Below, one piece after another: positions 138 to 479 of a stretch of DNA of 4,823 nt. This stretch comes from a virus (Duplodnaviria; Heunggongvirae; Uroviricota; Caudoviricetes). How positions within the stretch are numbered: position 1 is the first letter of the stretch; each line of letters opens with the position of its first letter. The notes beneath the pieces were generated by a model that saw only the letters and a program-made list of their open reading frames with translations, had not been told where the DNA came from and did not search any database. Where the stretch lies: IMG/VR virus record IMGVR_UViG_2695420579_000008; one strand, given 5' to 3'. Both the position numbers and the translations under genes were made by a program.

Positions 138-479
138 TTATTTAGACAAACTATCTAATTTTTGCGTCGCTTTTTGTGTTAGGTCGCTGTAACTGATAAA
201 CCCTACGTTAGCACCTACAATTAACACTAAGAACACTAAGCTGCATATGGATAGAGTGGCAGATTTATGCTTATGGAAAACAAAATATGCTACTATTGCA
301 CTTAATATGAAGGAAATGAATAGAAATATAGATGTTGATGTTTTTAGATATTTTTCAGGAAATAATGGGTGAGCAATAATGTATACAAGATTAAGTAGTA
401 TATAAATTGCTACCGGAATGAAAATCATGCTCCAGTGTGTATCTTTTTTGGGAGGGATTGGCTGCAAATAATCAGACAC
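138..479 (-). CDS. Hypothetical small integral membrane protein (113 aa, three predicted TM helices); unknown function
   Basis: ORF from the six-frame track. Translation shows three hydrophobic stretches of about 20-25 residues (IFIPVAIYILLNLVYIIAHPLF; IFLFISFILSAIVAYFVF; LSICSLVFLVLIVGANVGFI) separated by short charged/polar linkers. The first codon is GTG (477-479) with only a weak GGA upstream; an alternative ATG start lies at codon 18. AT-rich composition unlike the neighbouring phage operon. No family recognised. Confidence 0.45.
   Translation of the reverse strand: MSDYLQPIPPKKDTHWSMIFIPVAIYILLNLVYIIAHPLFPEKYLKTSTSIFLFISFILSAIVAYFVFHKHKSATLSICSLVFLVLIVGANVGFISYSDLTQKATQKLDSLSK

Follow-up and report, generated by a model that had tools for sequence, protein, structure and literature searches.

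The DNA analysed here, referred to as the window, is a stretch of 4,823 nucleotides (nt) from a virus record of the Caudoviricetes (IMG/VR, IMGVR_UViG_2695420579_000008). To the left of ybcN it carries two AT-rich genes on the minus strand, an intact gene for a soluble protein of 125 amino acids (aa) and, downstream of it, a 113-codon open reading frame (ORF) that begins with GTG (Table 1). In this study, we observed that the 113-codon ORF is the remainder of a 142-codon membrane protein gene inactivated by the loss of a single nucleotide, and we regard the identity of the gene and its status as a pseudogene as very nearly certain. A preliminary description of the locus, made from the letters alone, had treated the ORF as a complete 113-aa membrane protein whose start was either the GTG or an in-frame ATG 17 codons downstream (428-426). 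Both codons are present, but neither is the native start, and the gene boundaries did not hold, since the family to which the protein belongs has a length of about 142 aa. The apparent ambiguity of the start codon is therefore an artefact of the lesion.

Intact copies of the gene are found in Escherichia coli strains A7 and BH100N (loci L001 and L002), where 429 nt are translated into a protein of 142 aa (WP_000608370.1). In alignments to both strains the region in the window is identical save for one missing G, which is the single indel in 522 aligned columns. Owing to the missing G in codon 9, the native frame terminates after 15 codons, and a 34-aa ORF at 518-622 ends in ...MINITTKDALKSVVK. 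A tblastn comparison recovered residues 10-142 only from the window, in one frame, and codons 10-142 are 100% identical to the intact E. coli protein. Likewise, the window ORF matches the profile of phrog_16940 (E 2e-74) at positions 30-142 of 142 and thus falls short of a full-length match, and profile positions 1-9 are encoded in another frame of the window. Given this match and the purifying selection described below, the hydrophobic frame is not a product of chance.

At least 100 contigs of Shigella sonnei (150 index blocks) carry the exact 113-aa product, which is annotated there as a 'hypothetical protein'. Contigs that encode it, from five NCBI assemblies, are typically about 5 kb long and bounded by IS1 like the window, and the same lesion is present in the IMG/VR locus L029. 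The recurrence of this truncated product in so many S. sonnei assemblies shows that the lesion is genuine and extends through the lineage, and the independence of these assemblies rules out a sequencing or assembly error. Programmed frameshifting is ruled out as well, as all other family members are encoded in a single frame. The deletion must be recent, because the sequence downstream of it is still 100% identical to the intact protein. Since the membrane component is not made in its native form, the two-gene module in the window is most likely dead.

Two further natural lesions were encountered in relatives of this module. In the IMG/VR locus L033 (6001-6425) an independent frame change is located at about codon 53 of the membrane gene, with an intact partner; it may reflect a second inactivation in nature or an error in sequencing. 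In E. coli CV839-06 (L016, 2036-3187) the lesion is the reverse of that in the window: an IS1 is inserted near codon 47 of the partner gene, and the downstream 142-aa gene is intact. This insertion may silence the membrane gene through polarity.

The intact 142-aa protein is known from a small set of homologues. In a search of 5.8 billion proteins all 17 homologous clusters were about 142 aa long, and no N-terminally short family members were found among them besides fragments. Copies of the E. coli, Enterobacter and Klebsiella types are under purifying selection (overall dN/dS, the ratio of nonsynonymous to synonymous substitution rates, 0.07-0.19). The best-conserved stretch of the family comprises residues 1-36 (MINITTKDGTQVSGEVRDLVILLETDGKTVSDYLQP). 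Within codons 1-29 the E. coli gene differs from that of L030 (90% protein identity) by nine synonymous and no nonsynonymous changes, and comparison of these codons with Klebsiella gives a dN/dS of 0.07. It is these 29 residues, nearly invariant in the family, that the window ORF lacks.

The three transmembrane (TM) helices proposed in the preliminary description were borne out by dedicated analysis. The maxima of the three hydrophobic segments on the Kyte-Doolittle scale, taken over 19 residues, are 2.49, 2.52 and 2.41, and an AlphaFold2 (AF2) model of the membrane protein alone, a check that had been suggested, shows three long helices with a predicted local distance difference test (pLDDT) score of 85-92 on the basis of a 17-sequence alignment. 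The polar C-terminal tail, SYSDLTQKATQKLDSLSK, is also present as described. The motif in the tail (GANVGxIxYSDxTQK) is kept down to 35% identity. Ahead of the helices lies a strongly conserved, acidic and soluble N-terminal domain of about 40 residues, for which AF2 proposes, with low confidence (pLDDT ~56), a beta-hairpin at residues 2-14 followed by helices at 16-25 and 30-33. Conserved polar residues occur within the membrane, N59 in TM1 and N120 in TM3, and are consistent with helix-helix association or oligomerisation. Loop 2 is basic in all homologues checked (HKHK, KKN or KKK, i.e. two to three Lys/Arg); six of eight homologues lack acidic residues in it, and two have a single one. Most homologues have a neutral to acidic loop 1. 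Because loop 2 is always basic, an N-in/C-out topology is weakly favoured.

A metagenomic protein of 571 aa, P0054, which was one of seven matches to the family in the profile search described below, combines a sigma-70 region 4 domain with four or five tandem repeats (NVRDLVKKFENEGLTVEDYLHKACLKQ, residues ~290-440). A weak resemblance links these helix-loop-helix repeats to residues 12-46 of the membrane protein (E 3e-5, four stretches). The likeness hints at a helix-loop-helix unit in the N-terminal domain, and is too weak and compositional to build on.

The membrane gene does not stand alone. The preliminary description had tied it to the 125-aa neighbour, and this tie was supported: each of the 34 loci examined has the two genes side by side with an overlap of 4-17 nt, the partner always directly upstream. 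These loci comprise E. coli prophages, six prophage loci of Klebsiella and Enterobacter, 17 IMG/VR contigs and metagenomic relatives with 35-49% identity. In the window the partner gene stops at TGA 564-562, which shares bases with the native start codon of the membrane gene in the sequence ATGA. The membrane gene thus comes second in a cassette of about 800 bp whose two genes are translationally coupled. The partner matches phrog_18061 over its full length (E 9e-85), has an isoelectric point of 9.5 and no signal sequence, and contains the invariant motifs KDGGG, GTNxI, LIK and EEW. A double-glycine microcin precursor was considered for this protein and ruled out, since a fitting leader is missing from its basic, hydrophilic sequence and no exporter gene is located close by.

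The preliminary description had also placed the ORF in a prophage accessory slot, and this agrees with what was found, namely a variable slot between P and ybcN that holds the AT-rich cassette in antisense orientation relative to the early operon. This orientation is constant in prophages, and the cassette is located there between the replication region and ninB or DUF1367-ninE. Other E. coli prophages carry ren and small genes, or an unrelated gene of 239 aa, in the P|ybcN slot. Around the same cassette, the six Klebsiella/Enterobacter loci contain different replication modules (O/P, DnaB, DnaC-like) and three Q families. Two of the cassette-bearing Klebsiella/Enterobacter prophages (L006 and L008, 13311-14072) encode a BstA-type defence protein (KilA-N + BstA_C) beside the repressor; the equivalent slot is occupied by an NYN-domain gene in L005 and by a CbiA/AAA_31 gene in L007.

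Composition also sets the cassette apart. In the window its G+C content is 31-38%, compared with 50-60% in the nin genes; generally the cassette is at ~34% with flanks at 48-52%, and a value of ~34-36% is kept across every host context. Upstream of the partner gene a hexamer resembling a -10 element is present (Table 1), and at the same aligned position the Klebsiella loci have TATAGT and L009 has TATAAT. The hairpins directly behind the membrane gene may mark the transcript end or act as a stabiliser. Since a consensus scan returned neither a complete -35/-10 promoter nor a terminator, transcription of the cassette in the lysogen from a promoter of its own is something that we infer. With respect to the features expected of a moron, foreign composition and variable slot occupancy were both found, and the candidate signals for independent transcription are limited to the -10-like element and a hairpin without a U-tract. 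A scan of the window against Rfam revealed no RNA family.

As a whole, the window derives from a DLP12-like lambdoid prophage of which IS1 elements have left 4.7 kb, most probably in the S. sonnei lineage. The terminal sequence at positions 1-30 is what we take to be the inverted repeat of IS1, and the opposite end is likewise an IS1 terminus; the window therefore represents a 4.7-kb prophage remnant between two IS1 copies. S. sonnei contigs of like arrangement have IS1 insA/insB on either side, reached 163 nt beyond the gene on the P side. The remaining phage genes are listed in Table 1. The non-coding stretch at 996-1173, upstream of ybcN/ninB, is 80-95% conserved in HK639, phi80, phage 82, HK225 and lambda-like phages; its phi80 counterpart is annotated as IR4, and two plus-strand hairpins that resemble terminators fall within it (1149-1166 and 1172-1184). 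It is probably a regulatory or terminator region ahead of the nin genes. By eye, G+C-rich inverted repeats were seen at about 3105-3135 and 3215-3245, between quuD and the porin gene, and a run of N (a scaffold gap) occupies 4598-4692, where it separates the region of the porin promoter from the IS1 terminus on the right.

Table 1. Position and strand of the features identified in the window
Feature	Position	Strand	Remarks
IS1 end, cutting off phage gene P	1-30		S. sonnei contigs of like arrangement run into IS1
Remnant of gene P, its last 29 nt	31-59		match to P stops at position 59
Two hairpins directly after the stop codon, no U-tract	75-135	-	RNA fold -23.2 kcal/mol, z = -3.4 versus shuffles
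Frameshift-inactivated gene of a 142-aa membrane protein (WP_000608370.1 family, phrog_16940)	138-565	-	native ATG 565-563, stop 140-138
Mechanical 113-aa ORF, GTG start	138-479	-	native residues 30-142
TM helix 3 and conserved tail, native residues 103-142, motif GANVGxIxYSDxTQK	141-260	-	hydropathy 2.41; AF2 helix 103-141
TM helix 2, native residues 71-100, followed by basic loop HKHK	267-356	-	hydropathy 2.52; AF2
TM helix 1, native residues 46-68, conserved P51, N59 and Y62	363-431	-	hydropathy 2.49; AF2
Residual frame from the native start	518-565	-	MINITTKD, 7 out-of-frame codons, TAA 520-518
1-nt deletion in codon 9 (Gly9)	between 541 and 542	-	intact copies GGATGGCAC, window GGATGCAC (GG to G)
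Intact gene of the 125-aa soluble basic partner (WP_000182282.1 family, phrog_18061)	562-939	-	125 codons
-10-like hexamer TATACT, candidate cassette promoter	976-981	-	37 nt upstream of the partner ATG
ybcN/ninB	1204-1659	+	
ninE, then ybcO		+	
rusA	2109-2471	+	
ylcG		+	
quuD, Q-type antiterminator	2694-3077	+	
Intact OmpC/NmpC-type porin gene, prophage-borne	3266-4348	-	Porin_1, E 3e-153
Second IS1 end, closing the prophage remnant	4793-4823		L039 opens with an IS1 DDE transposase fragment adjoining the porin gene

Relatives of the cassette are also found outside prophages. An exhaustive hidden Markov model search of 1.84 billion representative proteins returned seven matches. One of these, P0050 (137 aa), is encoded on small contigs together with a ColE2-type Rep protein (PF03090 + PriCT_1). 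On these contigs the gene of a 128-aa partner homologue overlaps the end of rep, the membrane gene overlaps the partner gene, and Rop follows. Two contigs of about 3.47 kb (L013 and L014) have terminal overlaps of 127 nt and are therefore complete circular plasmids composed of rep, the pair and rop, with the pair as their sole cargo. A second, divergent pair has the same rep-coupled layout and lies beside a NikA/MobC mobilisation gene (L011), and a third is located on a circle of about 2.7 kb (L009; 55-nt overlap, 36% G+C) with no recognisable Rep protein. The plasmid and metagenomic versions have ~35-49% identity, and the pair plasmids are built on a small Col-type replicon that is common in Klebsiella, E. 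coli and Enterobacter. The plasmid CP037447.1 (Klebsiella sp. PO552, 5,974 bp; hit H57) has a related rep/rop backbone and is annotated with three hypothetical genes besides a gene for a DNA-binding protein and one for a DUF4433 (DarT-type) protein. This suggests that small Col-type plasmids can carry toxin or defence modules as cargo.

The cassette is present in 46 of 5,426 complete E. coli genomes. By tblastn with four family members, no match was obtained among the 50,697 phage records of INPHARED or the 72,556 plasmids of PLSDB, and a pattern scan of the GTDB species representatives gave no confirmed locus. Both families are already catalogued, without a function, in PHROGs and RefSeq. Searches of Pfam, NCBIfam and PADLOC with both proteins returned sub-threshold, generic transmembrane matches only; in PADLOC-DB v2 the best match of the membrane protein was a generic 4TM effector model (E 0.17), and the partner had none. 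The preliminary description had named membrane effectors, exclusion proteins and holin-like proteins as candidates, and none of these was supported by a match in Pfam or PADLOC or by hhalign comparison with lambda RexB and the S holin. Nothing was retrieved from the PDB by sequence-profile searches at E < 0.04, or from BFVD by Foldseek with both models at E <= 1e-3. In the literature library searched, no paper mentioned the family accessions or PHROG identifiers, and the families are absent from the DefensePredictor supplements as well. Prophage papers on HepS and svsR were considered and are unrelated to the cassette.

What could such a pair be doing? From the obligate pairing, the foreign composition, the carriage as accessory cargo on two unrelated kinds of mobile element and the purifying selection, we infer a putative two-protein conflict module that serves the element. 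It is tempting to speculate how it would work. The cassette would be expressed in the lysogen from its own promoter, and the soluble partner would bind or control the N-terminal domain of the membrane protein, which would be cytoplasmic. The membrane protein might then oligomerise and depolarise the inner membrane or block DNA entry. The favoured outcome would be phage exclusion or abortive infection, similar to RexA/RexB in its working; alternatively, the two proteins might form a post-segregational addiction pair. Overall, a pseudogene in the window combined with a conflict module in the intact form is the explanation that we prefer, with moderate confidence. More tentatively, the intact cassette may be a so far unrecognised two-protein conflict system that has moved from ColE2-like plasmids into lambdoid prophages and that protects the host or stabilises the element through a new family of oligomerising membrane effectors, gated by their conserved cytoplasmic N-terminal domain, the S. 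sonnei copy being a naturally inactivated allele. No specific functional reading of these families deserves more than such tentative status.

Several observations weigh against a conflict module. Homology lends no support to any function of the cassette. The topology signal is weak, with three to five Lys/Arg inside and two to four outside, and the AF2 model of the partner is poor (pLDDT 58.5). Natural lesions neither reveal which gene is toxic nor distinguish exclusion from addiction: in the window and in L033 it is the membrane gene that carries the damage, in CV839-06 the partner. The family is very small, as its seven matches and its absence from INPHARED and PLSDB show, and typical defence systems are usually more widespread. 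In the plasmids, moreover, the pair is coupled to rep, so that a role in replicon biology, rather than in conflict, is possible.

The main rival is addiction in the manner of a toxin-antitoxin system. Here, the upstream soluble protein would neutralise the downstream membrane toxin, loss of the element would kill the cell, and the benefit would go to the element rather than to defence against phages. The plasmid data fit this explanation equally well, given that the pair is the only cargo of plasmids of ~3.5 kb. A small soluble gene that comes first and overlaps the second fits, in order and sizes, a type II-like toxin-antitoxin architecture, and the pair is strictly co-inherited. In S. sonnei and L033 the membrane gene is broken and the partner intact, as would be expected if a toxin decays first. 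However, CV839-06 has an intact membrane gene together with an IS1-split partner, although this is not decisive because polarity could silence the membrane gene. Moreover, ColE-type plasmids are present in high copy number and have little need for addiction, and neither protein resembles a known toxin or antitoxin family (no such domain was found in Pfam or NCBIfam). On balance we consider addiction unlikely, though not to be dismissed lightly.

Less probable still is superinfection or entry exclusion in a single step, whereby the inner-membrane protein itself would block DNA injection or plasmid entry, as do P22 SieA, T4 Imm and HK97 gp15, and the partner would be accessory or regulatory. A small inner-membrane protein from a putative prophage moron would suit such a role, as would the conserved residues that continue past TM3 and that an N-in/C-out topology would expose to the periplasm. 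Known injection blockers, however, act alone, whereas a cytoplasmic partner is invariably coupled here. Conservation is highest in the N-terminal domain, whose location is probably cytoplasmic, and no homology to known Sie proteins was detected in Pfam or PADLOC.

With regard to the copy in the window, it could be argued that the 113-aa ORF is a functional shortened protein, translated by reinitiation at GTG 479 or ATG 428 after the 15-codon upstream frame. The perfect identity of codons 10-142 to the intact protein and the fixation of the truncated form in many S. sonnei genomes would be in line with this. However, S. sonnei is clonal, so the wide occurrence reflects one event, and the downstream identity reflects a recent lesion. 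In addition, the shortened protein would be without the 29 residues under the strongest constraint in the family, no other member apart from fragments is N-terminally short, and no clear ribosome-binding site precedes GTG 479. This alternative is thus very improbable, and the window copy is better regarded as a pseudogene. Finally, a holin-like lysis protein, or an immunity protein against a pore-forming bacteriocin, is hardly credible. In size and in its three TM helices the protein is reminiscent of class I holins and of ColE1/Ia-type immunity proteins (typically ~100-140 aa), and the plasmid context is ColE-like. In intact prophages, however, the phage has a lysis cassette of its own, essD-rrrD-rzpD, at a distance of ~4 kb on the far side of Q and the porin gene, and the membrane gene runs on the strand opposite to both the early and the late operon. 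In addition, the hhalign probability for lambda S is 8%, no holin or colicin-immunity family is matched in Pfam at E <= 0.1 (so far as Pfam holds such models), none of the 34 loci contains a colicin, microcin or exporter gene, and the partner is basic, soluble, leaderless and far too small for a colicin.

For annotation, the consequence is direct: the 113-aa 'hypothetical protein' entries of S. sonnei are frameshift remnants and their label should be changed to that of a pseudogene belonging to the 142-aa family. The biological lead is modest. An intact orphan cassette common to lambdoid prophages and cargo-only plasmids has the profile of an exclusion, abortive-infection or addiction module. 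If active, it would constitute a new family of membrane effectors and another instance in which small plasmids and the P|ninB slot of lambdoid phages, the site of ren in lambda, have exchanged cargo. Studies of the family are better placed on the intact copies from E. coli, Klebsiella and small plasmids than on the locus in the window.

Compared with catalogued proteins, the pair belongs to the same families as phrog_16940/phrog_18061 and WP_000608370.1/WP_000182282.1; the membrane gene of the window is frameshifted, whereas the intact E. coli copies are 100% identical outside the lesion. Class I holins such as lambda S and the immunity proteins of pore-forming colicins are likewise small inner-membrane proteins with three TM helices, but they show no homology, occur in another position and on the other strand, and differ from the protein studied here in its obligatory soluble partner and its conserved N-terminal soluble domain. 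GhoS/GhoT and hok-type toxins share the pairing, on mobile elements, of a small membrane protein with an upstream neutralising gene. GhoT and hok-type toxins are 50-60 aa long, have one or two helices and are controlled at the RNA level. The protein described here, in contrast, has 142 aa, three helices and a conserved soluble domain, and no homology links it to them. Lambda RexA/RexB differs from the cassette in several respects. The sequences are unrelated (hhalign probability 1.6% for RexB and 0.1% for RexA), RexB has four TM segments and no 40-residue N-terminal domain, whereas three segments are predicted here, RexA has 279 aa as opposed to 125 aa in the partner, and the rex locus lies in the immunity region, not in the P|ninB slot. 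However, both are two-gene operons carried by lambdoid phages, expressed from the prophage (for the cassette, presumably so), with a soluble protein encoded upstream and a small polytopic inner-membrane protein downstream (144 aa in RexB, 142 aa here), and in both, if the mechanism proposed above applies, the soluble component would control a membrane effector.

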